16,687 nucleotides of DNA from Myxococcota bacterium (GTDB lineage: Bacteria; Myxococcota; JACRCW01). Positions 1 to 16,687 of the stretch are shown here, piece after piece (within the stretch, counting starts at the first letter, position 1; every line of letters begins with the position of its first letter). The notes under the pieces were generated by a model that saw only the letters and a program-made list of their open reading frames with translations, made no database searches and had not been told where the DNA came from. The translations under genes were made by a program, and so were the position numbers. The DNA is taken from positions 1 to 16,687 of the forward strand of contig JBFMGU010000233.1 of the NCBI GenBank assembly GCA_040752415.1, given 5' to 3'.

Positions 1-331
1 ACGAGGACGAAGACGAGGACACCGCCGCGGATGACGAAGACGATGACGCCGCCGCGGAGGAAGACGAGGACGATGACGACGACACCGCGGCCGACGACGA
101 AGAAGCGGAGCTGCCGGGTCCTCCCGACGTGGAGCTGCCGCCCGAGCCGGAACTGCTGCTGCTGGTCTCCGTGACAATGCCCGCGTCATGACGACGGATG
201 ATGCGGCCACCCGCGTCGATCCCGCCTTCCTCGACGAGCTCCTCGCCAGCGTCCGCGGCCCCCTGTGAGGTGCAACCCGCGCCCGCCCACATCGCTGCCA
301 GCAGTGTCATCCCCGCCATTCTCAACGTCAC
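1..331 (-). CDS. Lipoprotein with Ser-rich linker; N-terminal part only, runs off the window edge
   Basis: Not in the ORF track. The reverse complement from GTG at 331 (GGGGAG just upstream) reads MTLRMAGMTLLAAMWAGAG-C-TSQGAADAGEELVEEGGIDAGG...TETSSSSSGSGGSSTSGGPGSSASSSSAAVSSSS with no stop before position 1. It has a hydrophobic signal and a lipobox Cys. Confidence 0.8.
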   Translation of the reverse strand, partial: MTLRMAGMTLLAAMWAGAGCTSQGAADAGEELVEEGGIDAGGRIIRRHDAGIVTETSSSSSGSGGSSTSGGPGSSASSSSAAVSSSSSSSSSAAASSSSSSAAVSSSSSS

Positions 332-512
332 GACACGCTCCCCAGGTCAGGCGGGGAAGCCTACTGAGCGCTTTGGAGGGTCACAACAGCGGGTCCTGCT
401 CCGGCGGGATTCGGTGGCGGCGTACCACCAGACGCTGCAGGTGCCGTCCCCGGTCGCTCGTGTTGGGAATGAGCATGGCCGCCGTCGGCGGGCGCGGGCT
501 AGGGTGGGCCCG

Positions 513-1946: not shown

Positions 1947-2022
1947 ACGCGCGGCGGTCCACCGGTTCCCAGGCGCGCCGCGCCCTGCTTAGATGCGGAT
2001 TCTCGCCCGTGGAGTCCGTTGC

Positions 2023-3768
2023 ATGCCGCCCATCCGGAACACGCCTGGCCCCGCCCCGCTGCCCCGCCCACTGACCACGCCCGCTGGCGTCGCCACGTCG
2101 ACACCCGGCACCACGTCCACGCCTTCCCCATCGAGCAACGTGACCACCGACGTGGTGGATCACCAGCCCTCGTCGCCACGACACGTCCCGGTGGAGCGCG
2201 GCAACTCCCATGCGCAGACGCGGGAAGTGCTGCAGACCTTCTTTGCTCCCTACGACGACCCCATCCAGCAGGACCTGGCGTGCATTCGCGAGGTGGTGGA
2301 GGCGCGCAAGGCGGACCCGCGTGCGTTCGTCGAGGGGGAGAACCCGTACAAGATCCAGTACGCCGTCTACAACCTGCGCAATCCCGCCGTGGTGGCCGCG
2401 CTCAAGGAGGCGCACCTCGCCGGTGTCGACGTGCAGATCCTCATCGAGCAGCACCAGCTGGATGCCGCCAAGACGTGGAACACCGCCGACGAGGAGCTCA
2501 AGGCGGCGGGGTTTGACTTCGCGGCGTCGCACAAGGGGCTGACTGCGGCGCAACGCAAGGAGCTGGACCTCATTGGCATCCAGGGCAGCGGGCTGATGCA
2601 CCTCAAGTCACGCATCTTCTCCCGTCCGGATCCGGCCGGTGGCCCGCCCGTCGAGAAGCTGCTGACCGGCTCCATGAATCCCGGCGACGAGGCGGCCGGC
2701 AACAACGAGACGCTGCACCTCATCACCGACCCGCAACTCATTGCCCGCTACAAGGCCAAGTACCAGTCCGTCCTCGAGGACAAACCGCTGGCCAATGAAT
2801 GGAAGGAGGGCGCGCCGGTCAACGTGCTGTTCACTCCCGCCACCCAGGGACCGCAGGCCGCCGACAAGATCCTGGAGCTGATTGACCAGGAGAAGGAGGC
2901 CATCTTCATGACGGTGTTCTCGCTGCGGAACATCACCAGTCCCAGGCAGCGGGAGTCGATGATCGACAAGCTCAAGAAGGCGAAGGAGCGCGGCGTGGAG
3001 GTGGTCATCATCACCGACCGCAAGCAGTCCGACGGCATTGGCATGGGCGCCAACGGCGGCCAGGGCTACAACGACAAGACCGAGGACCTGGTGAAGGCCG
3101 CGGGCATTCCCGTCTACGAGTGCGTCAATCCCGCCGGGCCGTTCAACGCCATGCACCAGAAGAACGCCCTGTTCGGCCTCACCAACATGAAGGTGGTCAC
3201 CGACTGCGGCAACTGGACGGAAGCGGCGCTCGGCAGCCACAAGAAGAAGGCGGTCAACGACGAGAGCTTCCTGTTCGTGGATTCGAAGAAGCTGGACAAC
3301 AACGCCACCGGCCTGCGCTACCTCAGCAACTTCCTGGTGCTGCTGCGTCAGTACGAAAACCAGCAGGAGGATGCGCCCAAGGCGGGTGCGCTCGTCGAGA
3401 AGTTCACCAAGCTGCCAGGCTGGCCCAAGGTCACCGTCAACTTTGACGCCGTGGCGCGCACGCACTTCGGTCAGGAGGTCTACATCACCGGCAATCACGA
3501 GGCGCTGGGCAATTGGACCCGCTCCGGCCCCGGCCTGAAGATGAATACCACCGGCGGCACCTATCCGCTCTGGCAGGCCGACACGTCGGTGGCGCTGCCG
3601 TTCGGGATCTCACTGGAATACAAGGTCGTGAAGCGCAACGAGCACGGCGAGCTGCAGTGGGAGGGCGGGGAGAACCAGCTCCTCGTCGTGGATTCCGGTG
3701 ACCTGCGCGTGAAGGGCGCGGATCAGCGCGGGAACACACTCAAGGTGGACACCCGCTTCCGCGAGTAG
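2023..3768 (+). CDS. Phospholipase D-superfamily protein (two HxK domains) with C-terminal CBM20 starch/glycogen-binding domain
   Basis: GGAG at 2011-2014 precedes ATG 2023. Motifs MHLKSRIF...TGSMN and MHQKNALF...TDCGNWT, plus PLD-like segments YAVYNL/AHLAGVDVQILIE and KAKERGVEVVIITD. From about 3430, VTVNF..THFGQEVYITGNHEALGNW..TYPLW..LEYKVVK..QWEGGEN matches the CBM20 pattern. Confidence 0.85.
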   Translation: MPPIRNTPGPAPLPRPLTTPAGVATSTPGTTSTPSPSSNVTTDVVDHQPSSPRHVPVERGNSHAQTREVLQTFFAPYDDPIQQDLACIREVVEARKADPRAFVEGENPYKIQYAVYNLRNPAVVAALKEAHLAGVDVQILIEQHQLDAAKTWNTADEELKAAGFDFAASHKGLTAAQRKELDLIGIQGSGLMHLKSRIFSRPDPAGGPPVEKLLTGSMNPGDEAAGNNETLHLITDPQLIARYKAKYQSVLEDKPLANEWKEGAPVNVLFTPATQGPQAADKILELIDQEKEAIFMTVFSLRNITSPRQRESMIDKLKKAKERGVEVVIITDRKQSDGIGMGANGGQGYNDKTEDLVKAAGIPVYECVNPAGPFNAMHQKNALFGLTNMKVVTDCGNWTEAALGSHKKKAVNDESFLFVDSKKLDNNATGLRYLSNFLVLLRQYENQQEDAPKAGALVEKFTKLPGWPKVTVNFDAVARTHFGQEVYITGNHEALGNWTRSGPGLKMNTTGGTYPLWQADTSVALPFGISLEYKVVKRNEHGELQWEGGENQLLVVDSGDLRVKGADQRGNTLKVDTRFRE

Positions 3769-3774
3769 GGTCGC

Positions 3775-5376
3775 ATGCGGCGCGTTGGCGTTCTCGTCGG
3801 GTGGGCGGTGCTGGCGTCGTGCTCGCAGCAGACGCAGCAGGAGGCGTTTGACGCGTGCAACAGCTGCAACGTGGTGGACTCCGGGCGGCACAACGTGGTC
3901 CGCGCCGACGGGGGCGCCCACACGGATGCCGCGCCAACGCCACTGGACGGAGGAAGCATCACGCCGGACGCCGCAGCCGTTCCCGACGCGGCACGTCCGG
4001 ATGCGACGCCCACCGACGCAGGACTACGCGATGCTGCACCACCTCCCGACGCCGCGCTCCCGCACGACGCGGCCGCGCCACCCGATGCGAACGTTTCCGT
4101 CGACGCCACCACGCCGGAGAGCTTCCCGGATGCGACGGTGCGGGATGCGTCGTCGGGAAGTGCGGATGCGAACCTGGGGTGGCCCCTTGATGCGGCGATT
4201 CCCCAGGGCTGCCCGGTGAATCCGCCGGACACGTCGGGAACGGCGTGGAGCGGGTGGGGCAACTTCCAGTACCCGGCCACCACCACGACGACGGAAGGCA
4301 CTCCCAGCCCCTTGGTCTTTGGCCAGGTGTGGCGGGATGGGGAGACGAACCAGCCGGGCGTGGCGTCGGGCTGGGAGGCGGAAGTGGCGGTGGGACCGTT
4401 GGGCGCGCTGCCTACCACCGACGGACGCTGCTGGAAGTACCAGGACGCCGAATACAACGTGGACGTGGGGAACAACGACGAGTACCGCGTTGCCGTCACG
4501 CCCTCCGGCGTGGGGCTGTACGGGTTGTATTTCCGCTACCGGCCCAGCGGCGGCGCGTGGCGCTACGGTGACCTCAACGGCTCCGACGACGGAATCCAGG
4601 TGGACCAGGCCGCGCGTTTCGTCGTCACCGGGGCGGTGGACCGGGCACTGGTGGTGGCAACGGTGAACCTGCATTGCCGTACCGACGCGTGGACCACACG
4701 ACTGCCACTCATCGTCAGTGCGCTGGCGCGCATCTCGCCGGACCTCGTGGCGTTCCAGGAGGATTGCTCGCAGGGGAGCGGCGTGGCGCAGTCGGTGGAG
4801 GTCCGCGCGGAGCTGGCCAGCGTGGTGGGGCGCGGTTACGAGGTGCTGCGCGTGCTCACCCACCAGGCCAACCACGACGGGCAGACGTACGACGAAGGCA
4901 TCAGCCTCATGAGCGCGTTTCCCGTCGAGGCGTCCCATGTGCTGGACCTGCCGTATGCCACCTTCCCCCGCAAGGCGATGGTTGCCGACGTGCGCGTCAA
5001 CACCACGCTCGTGCGTTTCTACGCCACGCACTGGGAGTACGGGACCGAGAACGACGCTGCACGGGAGGGCTCCGCGCAGGCGATCCTCGCGGACGTTCCG
5101 TCGGGGCGGGTGACGTTCGTGGCGGGCGACTTCAACACCGCGCCCACGGCGCAGGCCGTCGCGACGATGCGTGCCAGCATGACCGACGTGTGGGCCGCGG
5201 CGAATCCGTCGAGCGCGGGGCTCACGTTCCCGGCGAGCAATCCCACGCGGCGTATTGATTACGTCTTCATGACGCCCGACGGCACGGTGCGGGGTGCGCG
5301 GATTCTCGACGAGCGCAACGGTGCGACGCTGATGAGCGACCATCGCGGCGTGGCGGTGGCGGCCGAGTTGCCGTGA
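3775..5376 (+). CDS. Lipoprotein: Asp-Ala linker, 'GNNDEY' beta-sandwich module and EEP-family phosphoesterase domain
   Basis: MRRVGVLVGWAVLAS-C lipobox; starts 7 nt after the upstream stop. EEP motifs VATVNLH, PDLVAFQE, ATHW, AGDFN, RIDYVF, SDH. Middle domain GWGNFQYP..VFGQVW..YNVDVGNNDEY..YFRY..WRYGDLNG. Confidence 0.88.
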   Translation: MRRVGVLVGWAVLASCSQQTQQEAFDACNSCNVVDSGRHNVVRADGGAHTDAAPTPLDGGSITPDAAAVPDAARPDATPTDAGLRDAAPPPDAALPHDAAAPPDANVSVDATTPESFPDATVRDASSGSADANLGWPLDAAIPQGCPVNPPDTSGTAWSGWGNFQYPATTTTTEGTPSPLVFGQVWRDGETNQPGVASGWEAEVAVGPLGALPTTDGRCWKYQDAEYNVDVGNNDEYRVAVTPSGVGLYGLYFRYRPSGGAWRYGDLNGSDDGIQVDQAARFVVTGAVDRALVVATVNLHCRTDAWTTRLPLIVSALARISPDLVAFQEDCSQGSGVAQSVEVRAELASVVGRGYEVLRVLTHQANHDGQTYDEGISLMSAFPVEASHVLDLPYATFPRKAMVADVRVNTTLVRFYATHWEYGTENDAAREGSAQAILADVPSGRVTFVAGDFNTAPTAQAVATMRASMTDVWAAANPSSAGLTFPASNPTRRIDYVFMTPDGTVRGARILDERNGATLMSDHRGVAVAAELP

Positions 5377-5391
5377 AAGGGCTCACTGAAG

Positions 5392-5561
5392 TCGGTGGGC
5401 TCGAGTGAAAGCGGTACTTCATACCGCAGTCCGAAAGGTGCGGGCCCGGCGACGCGGTTTCCATTGCCCGCACCGCGTGTGCCGAATTGGAGTCATTGGA
5501 ACAAGCGCCGGCACACTTTCGGACTGCGGTATGAAGTACCGCTTTCACTCAAGTCCGCCGA
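5392..5561. repeat. Long inverted repeat (REPIN/MITE-like) with two internal hairpins
   Basis: 5403-5437 (GAGTGAAAGCGGTACTTCATACCGCAGTCCGAAAG) is the perfect 35-bp reverse complement of 5516-5550, extending imperfectly to 5392/5561. Internal stems 5437-5445/5466-5474 and 5477-5484/5509-5516. It lies between convergent genes. Confidence 0.9.
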
Positions 5562-5693
5562 ACCGGCGGTTCACGCGTGGCTCTTCACGTTGGGCACCAC
5601 GCTGTTCAGCGCCTTCCCGCACAGCGCGCGCTGGTCACCGAAGCGGCTGTCATGCGCAGGGAGATGGCCGTCGCAGTAGCGTGCAGCGCCGAC

Positions 5694-8147
5694 TCAGGGA
5701 CGCGCGTAGACCACGAAGTACTCGAACGCGGCACCGGTGCTCAGCGTGGCCAGGCCGATGTTGCCCACCGGGTTCACCGTGGAGCCCGCTTCCACCGTCT
5801 GCGAATAAACCGTGCACGCCAGGCCGTCGGCGCCGGCCATCAGTCTGACGCGCGTGCCGCGGTCACACGCCAACGCGCTCCCGGTGTCCGCGCTGGCCAG
5901 CCAGGTCAGGGCGCCGCTGGTCTCCTCGCGATACAGCGCGGCGTACGCGTCGTACTGGTCCTGCTCCACCGTGCAATAGGCGCTCGTCTGGTCCGTGAGG
6001 TCTGCCCACACCACGACGTAGTACGGCGGACGAACCACGGCGCGCTGCACCAAGGTGGTCTCCACCACCACAGACCGCAGCGTCCCGCTGGCCACCAACG
6101 TGCCCGCGGAGCTTTCCGCAAGGTTCGACTGCACCACCCCGTCGGGCAAGGGATTCCATGTCCCCGCCCACGATTGCCACTCCGGCCCCAAGCCGTCCCT
6201 GAACGGGTCGAAGAACGCGATGAAGTCGCCCTCCAACGTCGGATTCGGGTCGCACGCGTCTCCCACGCCATCCGCCAGCACCCCGGCGTCCTCCTCCTGG
6301 ATGTCGGACTGGTTGGAGTTGGGCGTGGCCGGGCAGTTGTCGCAGAGGTCGCCCACGCCGTCGCCGTCCTCGTCGTGCTGGTCGGCATTGGAGACCACGG
6401 GACAATTGTCGCAGGCGGAGCCGACGCCGTCCTGGTCGGGGTCGCCGCTCTCGTCTGGAATCAACGGGCACGAATCGAGCGCATCATCCACTCCGTCGCC
6501 ATCGTCGTCGTCGTCGCAGGCGTCGCCCTTGAAGTCGGCGTCGGTGTCGACCTGTCCGGGGTCGGGCGCGTCGCGACAGAGGTCGCACTCGTCGGGTGCG
6601 CCGTCAGCGTCGCGGTCGGAGGGTTTGCCACTGGCGGACGGACACCGGTCACACGCGTCGCCAGCACCGTCCCCATCCGCGTCATCCTGGGATGGGTTTG
6701 GCTGGAGCGGACAGCTGTCCTCGTCGTCGGGAAAGCCATCCCCGTCGTCATCCACCGCGGGCAGCCCGGCGAGATGGTTGGCGTTGATTTCCTCCGGCGT
6801 GAGGCCGCGGTTGTAGATGGCCACGAGGTGGACCTGGCCCTGCCACTGACGGTTCAGCGTCTCCTCGTTTCCGACGAGCAGGTGGTACGACTCGTCCCAG
6901 CCGGCGATGGGTCCGGAGGCGGAGAGCTGCGAATCCGCGAGCACGCCGTCCACGTAGGCACGCTCCCACCCGTCGGAGAAGACCATCACCAGGTGCTGCA
7001 TGCCGCCGCTGAGCACCGCGTTGTGGATTTCCGGGCACCATCCCGCTTCACCGGTGTCGGGCGTGCGCAGACGCATCACCATGGAACCCAGGCTCTGTCC
7101 CAGCGTGAAGTTGCGCTCCGCGGTCCCCGGCGAGAACGAGACGATCCGCGACGGTCCATCCAGCGTGAGGTCCGCCGGCGTCACCCATGCCTCCACGGTG
7201 AGCTCCCCGGTGTCGTTCACCGCCTGCGCGAGGCGCGCCGCGGGGTCGGGAGTGCGCAACACCACCGGCGTTCCATCCAGGGTGACGCCGCGCTCGTCGC
7301 GCGTCAGGAGTGCAGGGTCGTTCAACGCCAGGTCCAGCGCCGGGCTCACCGACGAGGTGTCCAGAGCCATCCCGTCGGGGTCGTCGATGAAGGTGTACAA
7401 CGCCTGCAGGTTGGCGGTGGCGCGCGCACGCCCGGTGGTCACGCCGACGGACGAGCTCGCGGACTCACCCGCGTCGTGGAATGCCATGACCCGGTACTCG
7501 TAGGTGGTCTCCGCAACGCAGGACGTGTCGACGACGTTGGTGGCGTCCGCCGGCAGGACCACAACCTCCGTCCAGCCCTGGCTCGCCGGGTCCCGCCGCT
7601 CCACGCGGAAGCCGGTCTCGTCGTTGGAGGCGTCCTCCCAGCGCAGGTGCACCCGGTCATGGAAGGCGACGTAGGCCACGAGGCCGGTGGGTGCGTTGGG
7701 GGGCGCCAGCCCACCGGATGAGCTGGACGACGACACGCTCGCGTTGCTCGACGAGGAACTGGCCACGCTCGCGGAGGCGGCACTGGCGCTCGAGGTCACG
7801 GACGCGCTCGAGCTTTCTCCTGTTGATGAGGACGACGAGGACGTGCCGCCGCTGGAAGTCGTTGCCCCAGACGAAGACAGGCTCGACGATGATGACGACG
7901 CCGCGGAGGCGCTTGACGAGGCGCTGGAGGACGATGACGACGAGGATGAGGCCGCAATGCCCGGCGCACGGGCACCTTCCACGCACTCGCCGCCCTCACA
8001 TCGCTCGTTGCCGGTGCAGTCTTCGTCGGCGTTGCACAATCGGATGCACTTGCCGTCGCGGGCAACCTCGTCGGACTCACAGGTGACGCAGCCCCAGCTG
8101 GCCGTTGCTACCGCCACCACCCCCAGGAGGTGAATCCGTCCAAGCAT
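5694..8147 (-). CDS. Surface lipoprotein: Cys-rich module, Ser-rich linker, FN3, LamG/ConA-like domain, thrombospondin type-3 Ca-binding repeats, C-terminal beta-rich domain
   Basis: GGAGG precedes ATG 8147; MLGRIHLLGVVAVATASWG-C lipobox. CNADEDCTGNERCEGGEC; PNAPTGL..LRWEDASNDETGFRVER..YEYRVMA (FN3); LTVEAWV..RIVS..QHLVMVF..YVDG..WQGQVHLVAIYNRGLTPEEI (LamG); repeated DxDGDGxGDACDxCP (TSP3). Confidence 0.9.
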   Translation of the reverse strand: MLGRIHLLGVVAVATASWGCVTCESDEVARDGKCIRLCNADEDCTGNERCEGGECVEGARAPGIAASSSSSSSSSASSSASAASSSSSSLSSSGATTSSGGTSSSSSSTGESSSASVTSSASAASASVASSSSSNASVSSSSSSGGLAPPNAPTGLVAYVAFHDRVHLRWEDASNDETGFRVERRDPASQGWTEVVVLPADATNVVDTSCVAETTYEYRVMAFHDAGESASSSVGVTTGRARATANLQALYTFIDDPDGMALDTSSVSPALDLALNDPALLTRDERGVTLDGTPVVLRTPDPAARLAQAVNDTGELTVEAWVTPADLTLDGPSRIVSFSPGTAERNFTLGQSLGSMVMRLRTPDTGEAGWCPEIHNAVLSGGMQHLVMVFSDGWERAYVDGVLADSQLSASGPIAGWDESYHLLVGNEETLNRQWQGQVHLVAIYNRGLTPEEINANHLAGLPAVDDDGDGFPDDEDSCPLQPNPSQDDADGDGAGDACDRCPSASGKPSDRDADGAPDECDLCRDAPDPGQVDTDADFKGDACDDDDDGDGVDDALDSCPLIPDESGDPDQDGVGSACDNCPVVSNADQHDEDGDGVGDLCDNCPATPNSNQSDIQEEDAGVLADGVGDACDPNPTLEGDFIAFFDPFRDGLGPEWQSWAGTWNPLPDGVVQSNLAESSAGTLVASGTLRSVVVETTLVQRAVVRPPYYVVVWADLTDQTSAYCTVEQDQYDAYAALYREETSGALTWLASADTGSALACDRGTRVRLMAGADGLACTVYSQTVEAGSTVNPVGNIGLATLSTGAAFEYFVVYARP

Positions 8148-8382
8148 GCCACCGCCTCCGCGACCCCGACGGGAACACCCCGAAGCGGACGCCGCTGGGC
8201 GCAAACTGTCAAGGGAGCCACCGCACGCCCCCCTGCCGGAATGCGTGATCGGGAGGAGAGCCTGACGTCATCAAGGGGCGGAAGCAGCGCCGCGTGCGCG
8301 TCCTCAGGCATCCCCGACGCGTCGAGCAGTCACATCCCGCGGGAGGTACCGGCGCTCTGAAGGTCTGTCGGACATTGCCAGG

Positions 8383-8492
8383 AGAAGGAAGTCAGAAGTC
8401 AGAATGCAGAAGTCAGAAGGTGCTTGCCCGTCGTCGTCACGGGACCACCTTCTGACTTCTGACTTCTGACTTCTGACTCCTGACTTCCTTCT
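8383..8492. repeat. Inverted arrays of 7-bp tandem repeats (GAAGTCA)n / (TGACTTC)n forming a long hairpin
   Basis: Left arm 8383-8422 AGAAG-GAAGTCA-GAAGTCA-GAATGCA-GAAGTCA-GAAGGTG. Right arm 8446-8492 CACCT-(TCTGACT)x4-CCTGACT-TCCTTCT. Inner mini-stem CCCGT/ACGGG. Lies about 40 nt downstream of the MFS stop, so it may also act in termination. Confidence 0.9.
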
Positions 8493-8532
8493 TTGGGGAT
8501 TCTCTGGGGATTCTCCGACACCCCATGAGAAC

Positions 8533-9861
8533 TCAGTTGGCGTCGCGCTGGCGCATCAGCACGCTGCCCCGCCACAGCATCACGGCGGAGAGCACACACG
8601 CCACGGGGCAGATGAGCAGGGAGTAACGCACCAGCGTGGGATCCTGCGCCACGCCGAGGACGTCATTGATGCGACCCACGATGGGCGGCGTGATGCCGTA
8701 GCCCACGATGTTGACGATGAAGAAGTACACGCCCACGCCGAGACCACGCAGCTTGGGGCCCACCACGTCCTGGATATCCGCCGCCGCGGGCCCGAGCCAC
8801 ATCAGCGCCACGCCCATCAGGACGAACATGGGCATCAGGAACACCGTGACGCTGTCCGCAAACAGCATCACCATCCACAACGGCGCGGAGACCAGCGCAC
8901 CCATGGCGGTGAACTGCATGCGACCACCCTTGTGACGCGCGCGGAACCAGTCCGCACCGTAGCCGCCCAGGATCGCGCCCAGCAGGCCACCCACCGACGC
9001 GCACAGGCCGATGTAGAAGCCCACCGTCTTCAGCTCCAGGCCAAACGCCTTGTGCATGTACGTGGGCATCCAGATGCTGAGGCTGTTGCCCGCCACGGCG
9101 AGGAGCGCGTAGCCCGCGTAGTGGAACCACAGCGCCTTGACGCGGAAGAGCACGCGCCAGTCGGGCTGCTCGCTGCTGTCCGTCGTCGTGGCGCGCTCGG
9201 TGACGCCCCGGGCCGGCTCGCGCAGCATCAGGACCGCCACGGCCATGATGATGCCGGGGAAGCCCAGCAGGTAGAACGCCCAACGCCAGCCGTAGGTGTC
9301 GCCAATGAGGCCGCCCAGCAGCATGGCCACTCCCGCGCCCATGGGGATGCCCGCGGAGTAGATGGCGCCAATGGTGGCGCGCATGCGCGGCGGGAACAGG
9401 TCGCTGAGCAGCGAGAGCGCAGCGGGTCCCAGCGTGGCCTCACCCACGCCCACCATCACGCGACAGACGAAGATGCCCGCGAACGTGTCCATCCAGCCCG
9501 TGAGCCCGGAGAACACGCTCCAGATCACCAGCCCCACCGCGATCATGCGCTTGCGCACCACGCGGTCCGCCAGGCGACCAAAGGGAATGCCCAACAGCGT
9601 GTAGAAGATGACGAACGACGTCGTGCCGAGCAGCGCGAGCTCGAGGTCGGTGAACTTCATCTCCTTCTTGATGGGCCCGAACAGGATGTAGATCAGCGTC
9701 CGGTCCAGGTAGTTCAGCATGTACACGACAAACAGCACCGCCAACGCCACCCACGACGAGCCCGGCACCGGGGCCTCGGCGGCAACGGGGGCGGACGCGG
9801 GAGCAGGCGCGGGCGGGTCGACGCGGACCGCGGTGGGACGGGACGAAACGGCAAGTGACAT
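8533..9861 (-). CDS. Major facilitator superfamily transporter, spinster-like
   Basis: GAGGAGGGG precedes ATG 9861 (start reassigned from 9978). About 12 hydrophobic segments; MFS motif A GRLADRVVRK; YMLNYLDR and RVMVGVGEAT segments typical of the spinster-like branch. Confidence 0.9.
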   Translation of the reverse strand: MSLAVSSRPTAVRVDPPAPAPASAPVAAEAPVPGSSWVALAVLFVVYMLNYLDRTLIYILFGPIKKEMKFTDLELALLGTTSFVIFYTLLGIPFGRLADRVVRKRMIAVGLVIWSVFSGLTGWMDTFAGIFVCRVMVGVGEATLGPAALSLLSDLFPPRMRATIGAIYSAGIPMGAGVAMLLGGLIGDTYGWRWAFYLLGFPGIIMAVAVLMLREPARGVTERATTTDSSEQPDWRVLFRVKALWFHYAGYALLAVAGNSLSIWMPTYMHKAFGLELKTVGFYIGLCASVGGLLGAILGGYGADWFRARHKGGRMQFTAMGALVSAPLWMVMLFADSVTVFLMPMFVLMGVALMWLGPAAADIQDVVGPKLRGLGVGVYFFIVNIVGYGITPPIVGRINDVLGVAQDPTLVRYSLLICPVACVLSAVMLWRGSVLMRQRDAN

Positions 9862-9872
9862 GGTTCCCCTCC

Positions 9873-10754
9873 TCAAAGGGACAACCGCCAGACTTCCTTG
9901 GCGGTGGTGAAATCGTCGGGAATGGTTTGGGCCAGGGTGGTGACCTCGGAGATCACGCGCGCCACCTCGCCCAGGCACTCGTGCACCCAGACGTGGGTCA
10001 CCTGCCGCGCGTCGCCCACCACGCCCACGCGTTGCAGGCGCACGGTGACCCGCAGCGTGTTGCGCAGGATCAGGTCGGGCAGCACCAGCGTGCCGCGGCC
10101 GGTCACTTCCACCTCGTAGTTGTCGTCCAGCGCGGTGGGCAGCCCCAGCACCACGGCGTTGCTGGCGCGGGCCTGGGTGACCGCGCGCGTGCCTTCCTGC
10201 AGCGGGAAGGGATAGAGCACCACCGGCACGTCGTAGACCACCAGGGTGCGGCCCTCCGCGGGGTCCGGCTCCGACGACGCGCTGCCGTACAGCCTCACCC
10301 CGTCGTCATCCACGCGCAGCGGGCCCAGCAGCTTGCCGCCCGGCACCAGCGGACCGGCGTGCTCCGCCTGCGGGAAGCTTCCCTGGAACCACTGGCCTTC
10401 CATGCTCTGCAGCTGCAGACGCCCCAGCGGCTCTCCCTCGGGGTCGGGCACGGAGAAGTCCCAGCGACGGTCCCCGTCCTCGTCGGTGAAGCCCAACACG
10501 TCCACCGTCACGGGGCCCTGCCGCACACGCACCCGGGCCACCGCGCCTTCCACGAAGGGCATCTCCGCGTACTCGATGACGCCGTCATTGTTGCCGCGAC
10601 AATCCGGCGCCTGCACCACCGGCTCGTAGCTCTCGTCCTCGGCGGACGTCTCCGGGGCCAGGCCGTAGGGCGCGCCCTCGCACGCGGCGCACAGCAGCAC
10701 CGTCAACGCCAGCGCGGAACGCAGTCCATGGTGCAGTGCAACATCAGCGCGCAT
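9873..10754 (-). CDS. Lipoprotein of unknown function, paralog of 13313..14329
   Basis: LALTVLLCAA-C lipobox; EF-hand-like NNDGVIEYAE. Shares WDFS, FPQ, G.AS.EP...TL..YD.PV....FP and RG.LV.P...LRV blocks with the other lipoprotein. Start overlaps the upstream stop by 11 nt. Confidence 0.85.
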   Translation of the reverse strand: MRADVALHHGLRSALALTVLLCAACEGAPYGLAPETSAEDESYEPVVQAPDCRGNNDGVIEYAEMPFVEGAVARVRVRQGPVTVDVLGFTDEDGDRRWDFSVPDPEGEPLGRLQLQSMEGQWFQGSFPQAEHAGPLVPGGKLLGPLRVDDDGVRLYGSASSEPDPAEGRTLVVYDVPVVLYPFPLQEGTRAVTQARASNAVVLGLPTALDDNYEVEVTGRGTLVLPDLILRNTLRVTVRLQRVGVVGDARQVTHVWVHECLGEVARVISEVTTLAQTIPDDFTTAKEVWRLSL

Positions 10755-12333
10755 AACCCAGCCTCACAAGGACCATGGTGGTGGGAAGGTTGGAGCTGTT
10801 GGCGCTCCGCTTGGCCAGACCCGCCAGGGGAAAGAGCACGCCGGCGTCGGTACGAATGGAGAAGGAGCCCATCTGCAGCGTCATGGCGCTGTCGACCTCG
10901 AACCCCAGCGGGTTGGCCCCGCCAGGCGCACTGCGCGCCAGCAGCGCGTGCGAGTACACGGTGTTGAACTCAAAGCGCATCCCCTCGACGGGCTGCAACG
11001 CGAACCGACCCCGCGCATACGCCGCCTCGCTCACGCCCCCCAGCAGCGTGCGCCAGAGGATGAGATCCACGCGGTACATCGGGTGCATGCGGAAGGAGTC
11101 GAACCGGCGGTCGCGCACGCCGTCCACCTGCGGGCCAAAGATGTCTCCCCGACGGGACTCCAGCAGGCCGGTGCTCTCCGACGCAGGGAATCCGGGGCTG
11201 GGATCCGGGCTGGCCACGCCCGCCTCACCCAGCAGACCAAACCGGCCGCGCAGCGGCAGCCACTCCGCCACCAGCACGCCCGCGAACGGGTTGCCCGTGA
11301 CGGGCTGACGGAACTCCACGCCGGGGTACGGCGAGGGATTGCCAATGTGCAGGTGCGTGAACACGCCTTCCGCTTCCACGCGCAGGTCGCGGAACCAGAA
11401 GCGGACCCACACGTCGGCCAGCGCGGCGAAGTAGTCGCGACGCACCGTCTCATTCTTGTTGAGCCCCGGAGTGGCGGAGAGCGTCTGGTAGTAGACCGGA
11501 TTGTCGCGCAGCTGGAACTGCGTGGTGAGCGCGGCGCCGTAGTCCAGCACCCAGCCCCCGGCGCGACGGTGCATGTCCACTTCCCACGGCGCGCGCCAGC
11601 GCAACACCGCCAGGGAGAACGCCTGCTGGCCCAGCAACGGGGAGGTCGGGTTGGGGCCCACCGCGTTGTGGTTGCCGCGCGGACCGCTGGCCGCGATGTC
11701 AAACGCCGCCGCCAGGAAGTGGCCCACCATGGGCATCCACCACGCCACGCGATCCGCGCGGTCACCACCGTCGTCGTCGAGATCGTCGCCGGCGTTGGCG
11801 GCAATGCCCAGGCCGAAATGCGTGGGGGAGCGCCCCGCGGAGATCACGCCCAGCGGCGTCATGGCCTCGGCCACCGCGCTGCGCAGCTTGAAGGCGCCCT
11901 GGGCGGCGGTGACCGGATCCTGGAACCCGGTGCCCGCCACAATGGCCGCCCGCCCGTTGTACGGCGTACCACGCGGAGTTGCGCCAAAGGCCAGGTTGTC
12001 CAGCACGTCCACCTCGACAAAGACACGCACGTCCTCGCCGAACCACAACGTGGGAGAGAGACGCAGCCGCATGTCCGCGCCCGTGGTGGTGCGCAGCGGC
12101 CCGTCGCCACGGGGCCAATAGGTCTGACCGCTGGGAGAAGGACGCGCCTCCAGGTCCATCCCGTTGTAGACCGCGCCGCGCACGCGCAGGTGGCCCTTGA
12201 GGGAGAACAGCTCACCGGGCTTGTGCTCGCGGAAGGTCTCGCCCGGGTCACCAAAGCCCACGCGCGCGTGCGCCGTCATGCCCGACGACACCAACGCCAC
12301 CACGGCCACCCATCGCATGCAGCGCGTCATCAT
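10744..12333 (-). CDS. Outer-membrane beta-barrel protein, resembling myxobacterial TIGR04551-type barrels
   Basis: ATG 12333 overlaps the hydrolase TGA (ATGA). Sec signal MMTRCMRWVAVVALVSSGMTAHA; alternating amphipathic strands (FSLKGHLRVRG, ADMRLRLSP, VRVFVEVDVLDN, LRVEAEG, LGFEVD); C-terminal MVLVRLGYAR. The family name is from recollection of the motifs. Confidence 0.75.
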   Translation of the reverse strand: MMTRCMRWVAVVALVSSGMTAHARVGFGDPGETFREHKPGELFSLKGHLRVRGAVYNGMDLEARPSPSGQTYWPRGDGPLRTTTGADMRLRLSPTLWFGEDVRVFVEVDVLDNLAFGATPRGTPYNGRAAIVAGTGFQDPVTAAQGAFKLRSAVAEAMTPLGVISAGRSPTHFGLGIAANAGDDLDDDGGDRADRVAWWMPMVGHFLAAAFDIAASGPRGNHNAVGPNPTSPLLGQQAFSLAVLRWRAPWEVDMHRRAGGWVLDYGAALTTQFQLRDNPVYYQTLSATPGLNKNETVRRDYFAALADVWVRFWFRDLRVEAEGVFTHLHIGNPSPYPGVEFRQPVTGNPFAGVLVAEWLPLRGRFGLLGEAGVASPDPSPGFPASESTGLLESRRGDIFGPQVDGVRDRRFDSFRMHPMYRVDLILWRTLLGGVSEAAYARGRFALQPVEGMRFEFNTVYSHALLARSAPGGANPLGFEVDSAMTLQMGSFSIRTDAGVLFPLAGLAKRSANSSNLPTTMVLVRLGYAR

Positions 12334-13316
12334 GGCGTGGCCACTCCACCCTGGCCGCTGGAGACCCGGGCGCGCGGCGCGGCGCCTCCGTCCACCACCG
12401 CCAGCAGCTCCTGGATGACGTTGAGCAACGCGGCCGGACGCTCCCACGGCGGAACGTGACCACACCTGGTCAGGACCTCCAGGCGCGTGTTGTCGATGTA
12501 GCCCGCGAGCTTCTTCCCGTCGGCCAGCGGCGTGACGCGGTCATCCTCCCCCCACACGATCACGGTGGGAACGCGCAGCGTGTTGTAGCGCTTCTGGTCG
12601 CGCGTGTAGTCCATGCCTCGCACTGTGTGCAGTGCAGCATAAAGCGCGCCTTCCTGGACCATGTTGCTGCGGAACTCCCCAATGGATTCCGGCGTGGCAA
12701 AGCGCTGCTGGTCGGAGAACGCCAGGATGTACTTCTCCCCGACAACCTCCTTGAACTGCGTGGCGAAGATGAACTCGCCCAGGCCGGGCACCTTGGCCCA
12801 CCGGAACGAGGACGGGATCTGCTCCTCCAGCGCGAACGCGTCGACGAGCACCAGCCCCGCGAACCGCTCGGGATGTTCCAGCGCGGCCTTGAGCACCACG
12901 CCGCCGCCGTAGGAGTGGCCCACCAGCACCGGCTTCTCCAACTCCAGCGCGTCGGCCAGCGCCACCAGGTCGCGCGCGTGCACCGCGGGACCGTACTTGC
13001 CCCCCGGACGCTCCGACTTCCCGAACCCGCGCTGGTCATAGGACACCACCCGACGCGACTCCGCGAGCGCGGGCTGGATGAGCGTCCACGTCTCCAGCCG
13101 GGAGCCGTAGCCGTGCACCATGATCACCGGGTGACGACGTGACTCGATCCGCTCCGGCGCGGTGTCACGCACGCGCAGCCAGGCGTTGTCCACCAGCACG
13201 TACTTGTCGGACTGCGGGGCGTCATGCGCCAGCAGGGGCGCCTTGGCGGAGTGCTTCCCCGGCGCGCACGCAGCCAGGAGCACCGCTCCCACGAGAACCA
13301 GGCGCGTGCGCTTCAT
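12330..13316 (-). CDS. Alpha/beta-fold serine hydrolase lipoprotein (esterase/lipase-like)
   Basis: MKRTRLVLVGAVLLAA-C lipobox; HGYG oxyanion loop, DQRGFGKS, nucleophile GHSYGG, acid WGEDDRVTP, His CGHVP. ATGA overlaps at both ends. Confidence 0.92.
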   Translation of the reverse strand: MKRTRLVLVGAVLLAACAPGKHSAKAPLLAHDAPQSDKYVLVDNAWLRVRDTAPERIESRRHPVIMVHGYGSRLETWTLIQPALAESRRVVSYDQRGFGKSERPGGKYGPAVHARDLVALADALELEKPVLVGHSYGGGVVLKAALEHPERFAGLVLVDAFALEEQIPSSFRWAKVPGLGEFIFATQFKEVVGEKYILAFSDQQRFATPESIGEFRSNMVQEGALYAALHTVRGMDYTRDQKRYNTLRVPTVIVWGEDDRVTPLADGKKLAGYIDNTRLEVLTRCGHVPPWERPAALLNVIQELLAVVDGGAAPRARVSSGQGGVATP

Positions 13317-14329
13317 GGCGCCAACCCCAGCCGCCGGAGCTCCGCCGCGGTGCTGAACTGCAGCTCCTCCTCACCTTCCAGGCTGGCCACGTACGCAACC
13401 TGCGAATAGCAGGGCGTCATGAAGCTGTAGCGGATGTACTTGTAGGTGAGCACGAAGGGCCAGAACGCAATGGGCACATCCACCTGGTGCTGCAAGCGCA
13501 CGCGGAGCACAGGGAAGGTTCCCGCCGGTGTCACCAGGTGGCCGCGCGCGTCGACGCTGAGATCGTAGGTGTCACTGCTGGAGTAGAACGTGTTGCCTTC
13601 GAAGGTGCCGCTGACGTCGGTGTTGCTGGTGAAGGCCTGGTTCAGCGTCACGGGGAACCGCACGATGTCCACCGGCGGGTCATAGGTGAGCAGCGTGTGC
13701 TCCGGCTCCTGGCTGGCCACGCCCAGCATCTGCACCACGCTCTCGGTGCGCTGGTAGATGGCGTAGTTGGTGGACTCGCCGTCGAGCGGGACCGCGTAGG
13801 CGCCCTGCGGGAAGCGATTGCCGAACCAGAGGTCGTCGAGCGGCAGCGCCTCCAACGTGAAGGCCTGGTCACCGGGCGCCGCCGCGGAGAAGTCCCACAC
13901 CCGCAGGCCCTGGGAGTCCGTGGTGCCCACCAGGTCCACCGGGATCCCGCCGTCCGCGCGCGCCTCCACGAACCGGCTCTCCACGTTCAGCGCCAGCGGG
14001 AGCTCCTCGGCGGTGAGGACGCCGTCGTCATCAAAGGGACACGCGCCACCGGGCCGGCCGCCGTCCCCCTGCCCTCCCGCGTCGTTGCCGTGGGCGGTGG
14101 CCGCGTCCCCGCGCTGCGTGCCGCCGTCCGTCCGGCTCAGCCCGGCGTCCAGCACGCCGTGGGGATCCTCATCCGCGCCCACACACTGGCCCGCGCGACA
14201 CACCGTCTCGAGCGGACAGTCATCATTGGCACTGCACGCGGTACCGGAGCAGCCGGGGACAGCCGCAACCGTCCCGGCCAGCAACGCGGCCAAGGCGATC
14301 AGACGAGGGAAGGTGGGAGCGGCAACCAT
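13313..14329 (-). CDS. Lipoprotein with Cys-rich module, paralog of 9873..10754; first gene of the minus-strand operon
   Basis: Start reassigned to ATG 14329: MVAAPTFPRLIALAALLAGTVAAVPG-C. CSANDDCPLETVCRAGQC, DAG-type linker, DDDGVLTAEE, then a beta-rich domain. Stop overlaps the hydrolase ATG. Confidence 0.85.
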   Translation of the reverse strand: MVAAPTFPRLIALAALLAGTVAAVPGCSGTACSANDDCPLETVCRAGQCVGADEDPHGVLDAGLSRTDGGTQRGDAATAHGNDAGGQGDGGRPGGACPFDDDGVLTAEELPLALNVESRFVEARADGGIPVDLVGTTDSQGLRVWDFSAAAPGDQAFTLEALPLDDLWFGNRFPQGAYAVPLDGESTNYAIYQRTESVVQMLGVASQEPEHTLLTYDPPVDIVRFPVTLNQAFTSNTDVSGTFEGNTFYSSSDTYDLSVDARGHLVTPAGTFPVLRVRLQHQVDVPIAFWPFVLTYKYIRYSFMTPCYSQVAYVASLEGEEELQFSTAAELRRLGLAP

Positions 14330-14340
14330 GACGGTGGCGT

Positions 14341-14393
14341 GATTAATGTGCGCTGCCACAAAAATCAAGGCCCTTTTATTGCGCTCCGCAACA
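14341..14393 (-). promoter_or_regulatory. Putative promoter of the minus-strand operon with degenerate PhaR-type boxes
   Basis: AT-rich island. The minus strand reads GTTGCGGAGCGCAATAAAAGGGCC-TTGATT-TTTGTGGCAGCGCACATTAAT. 14347-14366 TGTGCGCTGCCACAAAAATC nearly duplicates 14599-14617. Confidence 0.55.
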
Positions 14394-14597
14394 CGACCGA
14401 TACCCGGATCACCCCCGGATCTCCCTCCCACCGGCCCGTCCGCCCCGCGCCACCGCCCGCCGGCCGACCTCCCCGCCGACGCCCGACCGAAGACGATCCT
14501 CGTCGTCATGCCCAACCACAACGCCCGCGGCGCCCGGGCCGCACCATCAAGGAATATGCACCGCCCGGGTTGCCTGCCGCGCGGATCCGCTGATTTG

Positions 14598-14612
14598 TTG
14601 TGCGCTGCACAA
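14598..14612. promoter_or_regulatory. PhaR-type operator, perfect palindrome TTGTGC-GCT-GCACAA
   Basis: Matches TGCRNYGCASMA on both strands and sits just upstream of the -35 of the phasin-like gene. Confidence 0.75.
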
Positions 14613-14619
14613 AAATCCC

Positions 14620-14648
14620 TTGACTCCGGATCAGCTCATGTCTAGGTT
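14620..14648 (+). promoter_or_regulatory. Sigma70-type promoter of the pha operon
   Basis: TTGACT (14620-14625), 17-nt spacer, TAGGTT (14643-14648); GGAG RBS at 14681 and ATG at 14692. Confidence 0.65.
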
Positions 14649-14691
14649 GCGTCTTGCCACGGCGGACGTGGCCCCCAACCGGAGAATTCAG

Positions 14692-14973
14692 ATGACCTCG
14701 AACAACTTCATGATCGACCCCACCGAGCAGCTCAACGCCTTCACCAAGCAGTACCAGGAGGGTGTGCGCACCTACCTGAACTTCGTGGGGACCATGGCGG
14801 ACAGCCTGGACAAGCAGGTGGCGGACGGCCTGCGCGTGGCGGGCAGCGTGCAGGATCACCTCGCGGCTTCCCGTCGCCAGGGCATCAAGATGTTCGAGGA
14901 GGCGGTGGAGCGCAGCCTGGGCATGAGCCAGACGCTGGTGACCAACATGACGCAGGCCTGGAGGACCAAGTGA
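14692..14973 (+). CDS. Small helical protein (93 aa), putative phasin / PHA granule-associated protein
   Basis: GGAG 14681-14684 before ATG 14692; amphipathic helical composition; first gene before the phaE-like gene and phaC, downstream of a PhaR-type box. Function inferred from context. Confidence 0.6.
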   Translation: MTSNNFMIDPTEQLNAFTKQYQEGVRTYLNFVGTMADSLDKQVADGLRVAGSVQDHLAASRRQGIKMFEEAVERSLGMSQTLVTNMTQAWRTK

Positions 14974-15284
14974 ACAACCTGCAGCCCTTCAACATCACCA
15001 CCTGGCCCCTCTACCAGGCCTGGGAGAAGGCCACCTCGCGCATGCTGGAGAACACCATGCGTGACAACAGCTTCCTGGAGCTCTCCGGCCAGATGATGCG
15101 GAACATGCTGCAAAGCAAGAAGACGCTGGACCGCATGTTCGGCCTGGAGGCCGCGGGAGACAACCACTACGCCACCGAGCAGGACGTGGCGGAGCTGCGC
15201 CAGCGGGTGGTCGAGCTGGAGCGCCGGATCGTGCGGCTGGAGTCGGGCCGCAAGGGCGGCAACGCGGCGGGAGCAGAGGCATGA
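14970..15284 (+). CDS. phaE: Short PhaE-like PHA synthase subunit (104 aa)
   Basis: GTGA and ATGA overlaps couple it to both neighbours. C-terminal ATEQDVAELRQRVVELERRIVRLE resembles the PhaE / Bacillus PhaR C-terminal coiled coil; directly upstream of phaC. Confidence 0.6.
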   Translation: MNNLQPFNITTWPLYQAWEKATSRMLENTMRDNSFLELSGQMMRNMLQSKKTLDRMFGLEAAGDNHYATEQDVAELRQRVVELERRIVRLESGRKGGNAAGAEA

Positions 15285-16363
15285 TGAACAGCGCTTCCTA
15301 CCTCCGCCTGGCGGACCACGCCCACGCGTGGACCAGCGCGGCGTCCCGTGCTGCGTTGCAGCAGACGGCCAACACCTTCCGCCTGTTCAAGGGGCAGGGG
15401 CCGGTGCCGACGCCCACCCGCGGAGCCACCCCGCATGAGACGGTGGCCGAGCGGGAGGGCATCAAGCTCCTGCGCTACCCGGCGCGTGATGGGAAGGCCA
15501 AGGCGTCCGTTGTCGTCGTGGCGTCGCTCATCAACCAGTACTACGTGATGGACCTGCTGCCGGAGGTGTCGGTGATTGACACGCTGGCGCGCAAGGGCAT
15601 GGACGTCTACGTGCTGGACTGGGCGGCGCCCGGCGCCGAGGGCCCGCAGCGGGACTTCAGCGACTACGCCGACGGGTTCATCCCGTGGGCCGTGGAGCAC
15701 GCCAGCAAGGGTGGCAAGCCGCCGCACGTGCTGGGCTACTGCATGGGTGGCACGTTGGCGGTGATCCACGCCGCGCGTCATCCCGAGCAGGTGCGCTCGC
15801 TGACCCTGCTGGGCGCTCCGGTGGACTTCCACAAGAGCGGCGTGCTGGCCACCTGGACGGACCGCCGGTACTTCGACGCGGACCTGATGGTGGACGCGTT
15901 TGGCAACGTGCCGCCGTTCATGCTGCAGAGTGCGTTCAAGACCATGGCCACCGCGGGCATGGTCAAGAAGTACTCCGACCTGTGGGAGCGCGCCGACGAC
16001 GAGGGTGCGGTGCGTCACTTCCTGGCGGTGGAGTCCTGGCTGGAGGACAACATTGCCTTCCCGGGCGGGCTGTACCGGCCGTACATCCGCGACTGCTACC
16101 AGGACAACAAGCTCATCAAGAGCGAGATGGTGGTGGCCGGGAAGAAGGTGGAGCTGAAGAAGATCACCATGCCGCTGCTCACCGTGGTGGCCACCAAGGA
16201 CAACATCTGCGCTCCGGCGGCGTCGCTGGCGCTGCAGGAGGTGGCGGGCTCCACGGACAAGCAGGCCATCGAGTTCGAGACCGGCCACATCGGTCTCACC
16301 ACCAGCAAGCGCGCCCTCAAGGAGATGTGGCCGCGCGTGGCCACGTGGATGCTCGAGCGGTGA
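15281..16363 (+). CDS. phaC: Class III/IV-type polyhydroxyalkanoate synthase subunit PhaC (360 aa)
   Basis: GATPHETV..LLRY, SLINQYYVMDL, DVYVLDW, lipase box GYCMGG (catalytic Cys), APVDF, VDAFGNVP, ATKDNI (Asp), TGHIG (His). The ~40 kDa size fits class III/IV. Confidence 0.88.
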   Translation: MMNSASYLRLADHAHAWTSAASRAALQQTANTFRLFKGQGPVPTPTRGATPHETVAEREGIKLLRYPARDGKAKASVVVVASLINQYYVMDLLPEVSVIDTLARKGMDVYVLDWAAPGAEGPQRDFSDYADGFIPWAVEHASKGGKPPHVLGYCMGGTLAVIHAARHPEQVRSLTLLGAPVDFHKSGVLATWTDRRYFDADLMVDAFGNVPPFMLQSAFKTMATAGMVKKYSDLWERADDEGAVRHFLAVESWLEDNIAFPGGLYRPYIRDCYQDNKLIKSEMVVAGKKVELKKITMPLLTVVATKDNICAPAASLALQEVAGSTDKQAIEFETGHIGLTTSKRALKEMWPRVATWMLER

Positions 16364-16405
16364 TGTGACCCCCCGGGGGAATTTGCTGCAGTGCAATGGA
16401 ATTGG

Positions 16406-16477
16406 CGGGGCCGGGCCCCTCCGTCGTGGCGTAAGCGGCCGACACGACGTGGGGTGCCCGGCCCCGTGCTTTTCCTT
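16406..16477 (+). terminator. Long GC-rich hairpin followed by a pyrimidine tract, possible terminator of the pha operon
   Basis: CGGGGCCGGGC (16406-16416) pairs with GCCCGGCCCCG (16456-16466); CGTCGTG (16422-16428) pairs with CACGACG (16443-16449); followed by TGCTTTTCCTT. Confidence 0.45.
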
Positions 16478-16505
16478 GCGACGTTCATGGCATGTGGGCA
16501 GCGTC

Positions 16506-16668
16506 GTGGGGGCTGCTGATGCACGTCGGTGGACGATGGATCGTCAGCCCGCGGCCGAGCGGCGCGCGGCGGAACCAGAACGGGACACGACGACAACGAT
16601 GTAGGGGCTGCCGATCCGCGTTGGTGGCCGGATTGCGCGCAGTGGCAGCGGATCGTCAGCCCGGGGCC
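16506..16668. repeat. Two related GTRG-initiated palindromic units (REP-like)
   Basis: 16506-16535 and 16601-16630 are identical at 24/30 positions; both units end GGATCGTCAGCCCGsGGCC (16538-16556, 16650-16668). In unit 2, 16605-16619 pairs with 16648-16662 (14/15). Confidence 0.6.
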
Positions 16669-16687
16669 AGCGGTGCGCGACGGCACA

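Follow-up and report, generated by a model that had tools for sequence, protein, structure and literature searches.

PhaR is the standard case of a protein that senses in which physical state a storage polymer is present; in the studies considered here, its binding sites were mapped in alpha- and betaproteobacteria (PMC6201568; PMC12849132; PMC12542648). In Bradyrhizobium diazoefficiens, as described in PMC6201568, the PhaR consensus is TGCRNYGCASMA, the footprinted site at phaP4 overlaps the -35 element, and the targets include phasins and polyhydroxybutyrate (PHB) depolymerases. In Ralstonia eutropha, phaP1 and phaP3 each carry several PhaR sites (BS1-BS3) with the palindrome YTKNTGCRNYGCANMAR; a site within the coding region of phaP3 is bound in electrophoretic mobility shift assays, cooperatively with its neighbors, and a LacI-like model of auxiliary operators and looping has been proposed for it, in comparison with lac O2, a second operator that lies in the first gene and strengthens repression by looping (PMC12849132). 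In Sinorhizobium meliloti, the PhaR protein AniA recognizes a palindrome with AT-rich arms, of which two copies flank the -35 element at phasin promoters; PHB depolymerase genes are among its targets, and PHB sequesters it (PMC12542648). In the library searched, no published work on PhaR in this lineage turned up, nor any paper that contains the terms PhaR, phasin and Myxococcota side by side. Here, we describe a cluster of PhaR-type operators at a polyhydroxyalkanoate (PHA) locus of a Myxococcota bacterium, located on a contig of 16,687 nucleotides (JBFMGU010000233.1 of assembly GCA_040752415.1), which we analyzed at its full length and refer to as the window.

The window is contig C150 of an 11.0-Mb genome in 520 contigs. 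Two divergent operons span 9.9-16.4 kb, with four genes on the minus strand and three, including that of the PHA synthase PhaC, on the plus strand. The consensus TGCRNYGCASMA occurs exactly at five places, all within 10729-16395, and yields seven strand matches: 10729-10740 (minus), 12628-12639 (plus), 14598/14601 and 15349/15352 (both strands each) and 16384-16395 (minus). The two places that match on both strands have dyad symmetry, and the other three consist of one good and one weaker arm. An earlier interpretation of this DNA, hereafter the original prediction, had named these five places, had noticed none in the first 10 kb and had regarded them as PhaR-type operators; we found all five where it placed them and no exact match in the first 10 kb, and the pattern equals the published B. 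diazoefficiens consensus letter for letter, without having been fitted to this stretch.

This placement is non-random. Dinucleotide shuffles of the stretch contained 0.39 strand matches on average, and none of the 200 shuffles reached the observed seven. In the genome as a whole, the 12-mer occurs at 251 places in 11.0 Mb (264 strand matches), a rate of 0.40 strand matches per 16.7 kb. The figure of about 70% G+C throughout in the original prediction is to be replaced by 65-72%, computed per kb. Motif density is thus above the genome background, with five places against 0.40 strand matches expected, and the locus is the densest cluster of the 12-mer in the genome, with five places in 6 kb where the next best has three. 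Under random placement, 0.003 five-place clusters are expected genome-wide; as many as five places in 6 kb came up in 7 of 2000 simulations.

To rank the sites, we built a 19-nt position weight matrix (PWM) on 13 sites, all of them from five other genomes, and scanned the whole genome with it. Of the 12 best hits in the 11 Mb, 8 fall into three PHA loci (ranks 1-6, 9 and 12). Rank 3 is held by the main PhaR-type operator in the window (14596..14614, both strands), a perfect palindrome TTGTGC-N3-GCACAA, which is the sole occurrence of TTGTGCNNNGCACAA in the genome and whose 12-mer at 14601 is the very sequence footprinted at phaP4 in B. diazoefficiens. Rank 4 is a box at the junction of two minus-strand genes for an outer-membrane barrel and a lipoprotein (10727..10745); it lies in codons 4-9 of the lipoprotein, within the signal-peptide n-region, and immediately follows the stop codon of the upstream gene (10744-10746). 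Rank 12 is a box inside the hydrolase gene (12623..12641, about codons 226-232). Lower in the list are a palindromic box in 5' phaC (15347..15365, both strands, codons 23-28, rank 56), 751 bp from the main operator, and a weaker one (16382..16400, rank 196) between the PhaC stop codon (16361-16363) and a terminator-like hairpin, its 12-mer match at 16384 starting 21 nt past the stop. The position of these four boxes relative to the genes is as the original prediction had it, and all of them lie in cis, 0.75-3.9 kb from the main operator. Since their flanks are at most 48% identical, the boxes are not copied segments. Two near matches had been listed as well. The one at 14344..14362 (rank 214), 15 nt upstream of the ATG at 14329, is a decayed copy of the main operator, identical at 19 of 20 positions with one C inserted in the right half; the other, at 15104..15122 in the PhaE-like gene (PWM 13.7), is probably a chance match, as 795 of 5000 synonymous resamples reach its score.

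The main operator ends 5 nt before a -35-like TTGACT, which is followed after 17 nt by TAGGTT; from the sequence, we read these hexamers as a putative promoter (14620..14648, plus strand) of the operon for a small protein, the PhaE-like protein and PhaC. A consensus promoter scan of 10400-16687 reported 0 promoters, missing this one because its -10 element matches at 3 of 6 positions only. The same layout of a box, 5-6 nt and a hexamer of the TTGAC or TTGCC type recurs in this genome on two other contigs, at C509:219 and C29:27634, as well as in the related loci L096, L101 and L090. PhaR sites hold the same position at the phasin promoters described for three species (PMC12542648; PMC12849132; PMC6201568).

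As the original prediction had anticipated, PhaR homologs are encoded elsewhere in the genome: two genes with a PHB_acc_N domain lie on contigs C29 and C186. The C29 protein passes the TIGR01848 cut-off (110.5 bits against 109.45), and no solved structure is similar to it by sequence. Its counterpart at C186 418-1044 stays below the cut-off with 79.4 bits and has a phasin-like C-terminal part; no box on its contig scores above 7.5. The frame upstream of the C29 PhaR domain (C29 9590-9760) would encode a run of basic residues that includes an AT-hook-like RGRP motif (Pfam E 0.097). Motifs of the GRP type occur in only 2 of 30 relatives' translations upstream of phaR, and the C29 stretch may not be translated.

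The association of boxes with PHA genes extends beyond the window. Two of the four other clusters with three 12-mer places in the genome are PHA loci, namely those on C29 and C509. On C29, boxes flank phaR and are distributed over a divergent operon for another class III PhaC (phaC2), an acyl-CoA synthetase and a FabG/PhaB-like reductase. On C509 (314-2856), a lipoprotein resembling p402, the first product of the four-gene operon in the window, is followed by an extracellular type-1 short-chain PHA depolymerase, which scores 294 bits with NF050058 (cut-off 150); two strong boxes precede the p402 paralog, and a third lies in the last 28 codons of the depolymerase. Among other genomes, we fetched 58 loci with the barrel protein. 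In 29 of them, phaR adjoins the four-gene operon, and all 29 have at least one box (PWM >= 15) in the divergent region between phaR and operon.

The codons of the three intragenic boxes in the window are unlikely ones. The original prediction had called several of them atypical, correctly so: by genome usage, GCT (2.8%), GCA (3.2%), ACA (1.5%), GTT (2.9%), CTT (2.5%) and TTG (7.5%) are rare. When synonymous codons were drawn according to the usage of this genome, the observed PWM score was reached in 0 of 5000 resamples for the lipoprotein, 0 for the hydrolase and 3 for PhaC, far from what protein sequence and genome usage would lead one to expect; for nine other genes of the stretch, 219 to 4147 of 5000 resamples reach the score. 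Any published 12-mer match arose in 199 (lipoprotein), 31 (hydrolase) and 198 (PhaC) of 20000 resamples. The hydrolase box combines rare GCT, GCA and ACA codons with an Ala-to-His change, at positions where relatives mostly use GC-ending codons. Hence, the encoded proteins do not account for these three boxes. In the other PHA loci, the observed score was reached in 0 of 5000 resamples for the C509 depolymerase, 6 for C29 phaC2 and 29 for the C29 acyl-CoA synthetase.

Given this evidence, we consider it very probable that the boxes are real PhaR operators. PhaR binding, its repressive effect and the role of the internal sites are inferred, and the mechanism that we propose would run as follows. 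PhaR is a repressor that attaches to DNA as well as to PHA granules and recognizes palindromes of 15-17 bp of the form T-K-N-TGC-R-N-Y-GCA-N-M-A; here, the regulator is most likely the C29 paralog, which passes the TIGR01848 cut-off. PhaR dimers on the 14596 palindrome, abutting the -35 element, would most likely occlude RNA polymerase, until nascent PHB granules titrate PhaR away, as in the established model for Bradyrhizobium, Sinorhizobium and Ralstonia. Further boxes lie within the transcribed regions, at 10727 and 12623 in the divergent operon, at 15347 in 5' phaC and at 16382 between the PhaC stop and the terminator. These non-promoter boxes appear to have arisen in the lineage through selected codon choices, and would most likely serve as auxiliary operators that raise local PhaR occupancy, tightening repression either by bridging to the promoter operator, as with LacI O2, or by blocking elongation. 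We lean slightly towards such an auxiliary or roadblock role for the internal boxes, and regard a PhaR regulon with operators of this kind in a Myxococcota genome as the probable best explanation of the locus. In a bolder version, PhaR boxes would do more than gate promoters: placed at the promoter, within genes and ahead of the terminator, and brought into coding sequence by selection on synonymous and tolerant positions, they would punctuate and bracket whole PHA operons. Multi-operator PhaR-DNA assemblies would form through kilobase loops or coupling to nascent granules, and the regulated unit would be the whole operon instead of its promoter. We regard this version as improbable.

Several findings weigh against this explanation. 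The positions of the intragenic boxes are not shared with orthologs: the 10727 box is absent from 5 of 5 orthologous junctions, the hydrolase box from 42 of 42 aligned rows (at least three contigs being entered twice) and the PhaC box from 8 of 8 aligned rows. The synonymous-site conservation suggested as a check in the original prediction is accordingly lacking, and the boxes, each of them at a place where the orthologs have none, look like gains specific to this lineage. The nearest orthologs in these comparisons have 60-69% protein identity only. No closer relative was found in the collections searched: the search for relatives gave one genome of the same family (G001, 70% DNA identity), which has no close PhaC (best 27%), and a metagenome scan with the hydrolase gave 18 loci, the best 34% identical. 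Strong boxes are likewise infrequent in related operons: of 40 interiors, five contain boxes with PWM >= 17, seven boxes in all, of which one lies at the edge of a gene, and their positions differ from those here. In G001, an intragenic box stands at another place in the same operon, in a low-complexity linker of p402; in L096 (5745) and L101 (5802), an intragenic box is kept about 290 nt into a hydrolase-like gene adjoining phaR, after a conserved HG motif region; and L107 and L109 have a box at the junction of the hydrolase and barrel genes. Taken together, the sequences portray the intragenic boxes as sites of gain and turnover in tolerant coding parts, and not as conserved sites.

Nor are the interiors of related loci much richer in boxes than their flanks (44 against 38.9 per Mb). 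With flanks this dense, the enrichment in interiors is confined to the coding-class boxes, of which there are 3 inside and 1 outside. We rejected the flanks as a clean control: their 283 kb contain 11 boxes, 10 of which occupy gene edges or non-coding DNA and probably mark further regulon members. Furthermore, the rule by which we selected the matrix sites goes back to the consensus, which makes the matrix independent of this genome, but not of the consensus. All five places in the window also fit the Ralstonia palindrome YTKNTGCRNYGCANMAR with one or two mismatches; however, at up to two mismatches, this pattern is too loose to discriminate, with 146 hits per Mb (7 + 124 + 1478 hits in the genome), and we dropped it as a basis for genome statistics, as too degenerate. 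Other high-scoring hits in the genome adjoin unrelated genes without clear link to PHA, such as those for a GH31 enzyme, FabF/FabA, L33/EF-Tu, PrpD, TauE, acyltransferases and a glycogen debranching enzyme. Close to the start of the four-gene operon, there is just the decayed 14344 box, and the spacing of 0.75-3.9 kb by which the internal sites are separated from the promoter box far exceeds that of known auxiliary PhaR sites. Finally, when dyads were counted de novo in the 400-nt upstream regions of the phylum's 30 best-scoring phaR genes, TGC-N3-GCA did not come out among the top 15, and any such core is present in 6 of the 30 regions; these regions yield no independent motif because the genes are of the C186 paralog type. 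Separately, high-scoring box-like sites at C477:45625, C497:27158 and C135:41288 lie inside acyltransferase or FabA-like lipid-metabolism genes and could be further targets or chance matches.

Among the alternatives, the one that survives best retains the internal boxes as selected PhaR sites and assigns them another role, either as operators of internal or antisense promoters or as decoys that buffer free PhaR. It agrees with the box at C29:24077, which ranks fifth genome-wide, sits beside a hairpin between two convergent gene ends and can serve no promoter of either neighbor. The box past the PhaC stop, ahead of the terminator-like hairpin, and those at the hydrolase/barrel junction of L107 and L109 also fit a non-auxiliary role. 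Yet the 12623 and 10727 boxes lack the -35-like hexamer at 5-6 nt that accompanies the promoter boxes, and the four minus-strand genes overlap by 4, 4 and 11 nt, a layout as in a single translationally coupled operon. Weighing these points, we judge a role of this kind unlikely.

Alternatively, the promoter box at 14596 may be the only functional one, with the intragenic matches being accidents of neutral drift. This would account for the absence of positional conservation in every ortholog examined and for the 35 of 40 related operon interiors that have no strong box; besides, five of the six coding hits with PWM >= 18 in the genome lie outside PHA loci. It is harder to reconcile with the resampling results (0, 0 and 3 of 5000), and with the fact that 4.5 kb of coding sequence next to the third-best hit in the genome contain two more of its top 12. 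The same pattern, moreover, recurs in the PHA operons on C29 and C509, and G001, the sole genome of the same family, also has an intragenic box in this operon, if elsewhere. We therefore hold drift to be a rather poor explanation for the intragenic matches.

Two further alternatives fare worse. The boxes might tether pha loci to PHB granules, or nucleate granules on DNA, with PhaR holding DNA and polymer together. PhaR is reported to bind both DNA and PHB (PMC3570403; PMC12542648), and the boxes are scattered over the full length of operons, up to the 3' ends; in the established model, however, PHB competes PhaR off the DNA (PMC12542648), and only about 13 boxes in three loci would be involved, which makes tethering highly improbable. 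That a transcription factor other than PhaR recognizes the palindrome is just as hard to credit, for although such boxes are missing upstream of the best-scoring PHB_acc_N paralog type, the motif coincides with two PhaR consensus sequences that were published independently (PMC12849132; PMC6201568) and a box adjoins phaR in 29 of 29 related loci. We thus return to a PhaR regulon with auxiliary or roadblock operators, in which the non-promoter copies are statistically well supported and their function is putative; the original prediction of a PhaR-like regulon with extra sites is, in this sense, partly supported.

The genes that harbor these boxes form a cluster that is also carried by metagenome-assembled genomes labelled Myxococcota, Polyangiaceae, Kofleriaceae or Haliangiales, the nearest database records. 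On the plus strand, the first gene after the operator (14692..14973) encodes a 93-aa helical protein, a candidate phasin as a lead only: no Pfam or NCBIfam family was found for it, and Atlas phasin leads were weak and under its bar. It is followed by the gene for the 104-aa PhaE-like protein (14970..15284), whose weak match to PF09712 (E 0.0098, below cut-off) covers the last ~75 model positions, i.e. the C-terminal end of PhaE, and by that for the 360-aa class III-type PHA synthase PhaC (15281..16363), which has Pfam matches and scores 281 bits with TIGR01836 (E 1e-83, cut-off 365). Downstream of PhaC is the terminator-like hairpin (16448..16468, plus strand), with a T-rich tail after it.

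The four-gene operon on the minus strand begins with p402 (13313..14329), a lipoprotein to which no family was assigned and which is 42% identical to the C509 paralog that precedes the PHB depolymerase gene. We infer its start at 14329 from the lipoprotein signal peptide and the alignment with this paralog. A long reading frame spans 14390-14590 and would extend p402 upstream to 14521, while the signal peptide favors the start at 14329; this divergent intergenic DNA is unusually GC-rich and rich in proline codons for non-coding sequence. At 14377-14395, likewise upstream of p402, there is a separate small palindrome, TTGCG-N3-CGCAA, the spacing of which is not of the PhaR type. The second gene (12330..13316) encodes a lipoprotein alpha/beta hydrolase (Abhydrolase_1, E 4e-34), with weak similarity to PHA depolymerase models, under the model cut-offs. 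It is followed by a TIGR04551-family protein (10744..12333; E 2e-77, 261 bits against a cut-off of 300), which is predicted to be an outer-membrane beta-barrel: its structure model is all-beta (predicted template modelling score, pTM, 0.80), and chains of the alginate channel AlgE are the best solved matches to it (E ~1e-15, TM 0.50-0.67). Last in the operon is a lipoprotein (9873..10754) that is paralogous to p402, as seen from tblastn cross-hits between the two, and matches no Pfam family. The cluster of barrel and three lipoproteins is kept adjoining phaR and phaC in many Myxococcota genomes, and may be an envelope system that handles PHA or PHA oligomers.

The remainder of the window is of a different nature. 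The region 198-9978, where PhaR boxes are absent, encodes likely secreted enzymes and one transporter, namely two Exo_endo_phos proteins, a PLD-like protein with a CBM20 starch-binding domain and a TSP3/LamG/fn3 repeat protein, followed by an MFS transporter. At the other end, the last ~130 bases (16561-16687) recur at 98% identity at the end of contig C29 (30516-30642), with further copies at 76-86% identity on C470, C467 and C43; this is a dispersed repeat where the assembly appears to break.

With these features, the locus extends the PhaR-type operator to the Myxococcota and links PhaR to a conserved envelope operon for an AlgE-like outer-membrane barrel, two paralogous lipoproteins and a lipoprotein hydrolase; the paralogous operon with an extracellular PHB depolymerase hints at PhaR control of external polymer handling. 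Its intragenic boxes are, moreover, natural examples of operators within genes that lend themselves unusually well to testing: because their codons have usage frequencies of 1.5-3%, synonymous mutagenesis could tell selection on the DNA from selection on the protein. Compared to the systems described so far, it shares with lac the presence of operator copies in cis to a promoter operator, with bridging by PhaR being an analogy. In the lac operon, the auxiliary operators O2 and O3 accompany the main promoter operator, at distances several-fold shorter than those found here. With Ralstonia, it shares the palindrome and the occurrence of several sites, one of which is intragenic there (PMC12849132); by contrast, the internal boxes described here are 0.75-3.9 kb away from the promoter box, in downstream genes of polycistronic operons. 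In S. meliloti, the motif search was confined to upstream regions, and the main text names no intragenic sites (PMC12542648). The closest likeness in sequence is to Bradyrhizobium, with an identical consensus and, at 14601, the very 12-mer of the phaP4 site; according to the account in PMC6201568, sites were sought there in promoter regions only, whereas here, in another phylum, the boxes stand deep in genes and at operon ends, and an envelope operon is among the apparent targets.

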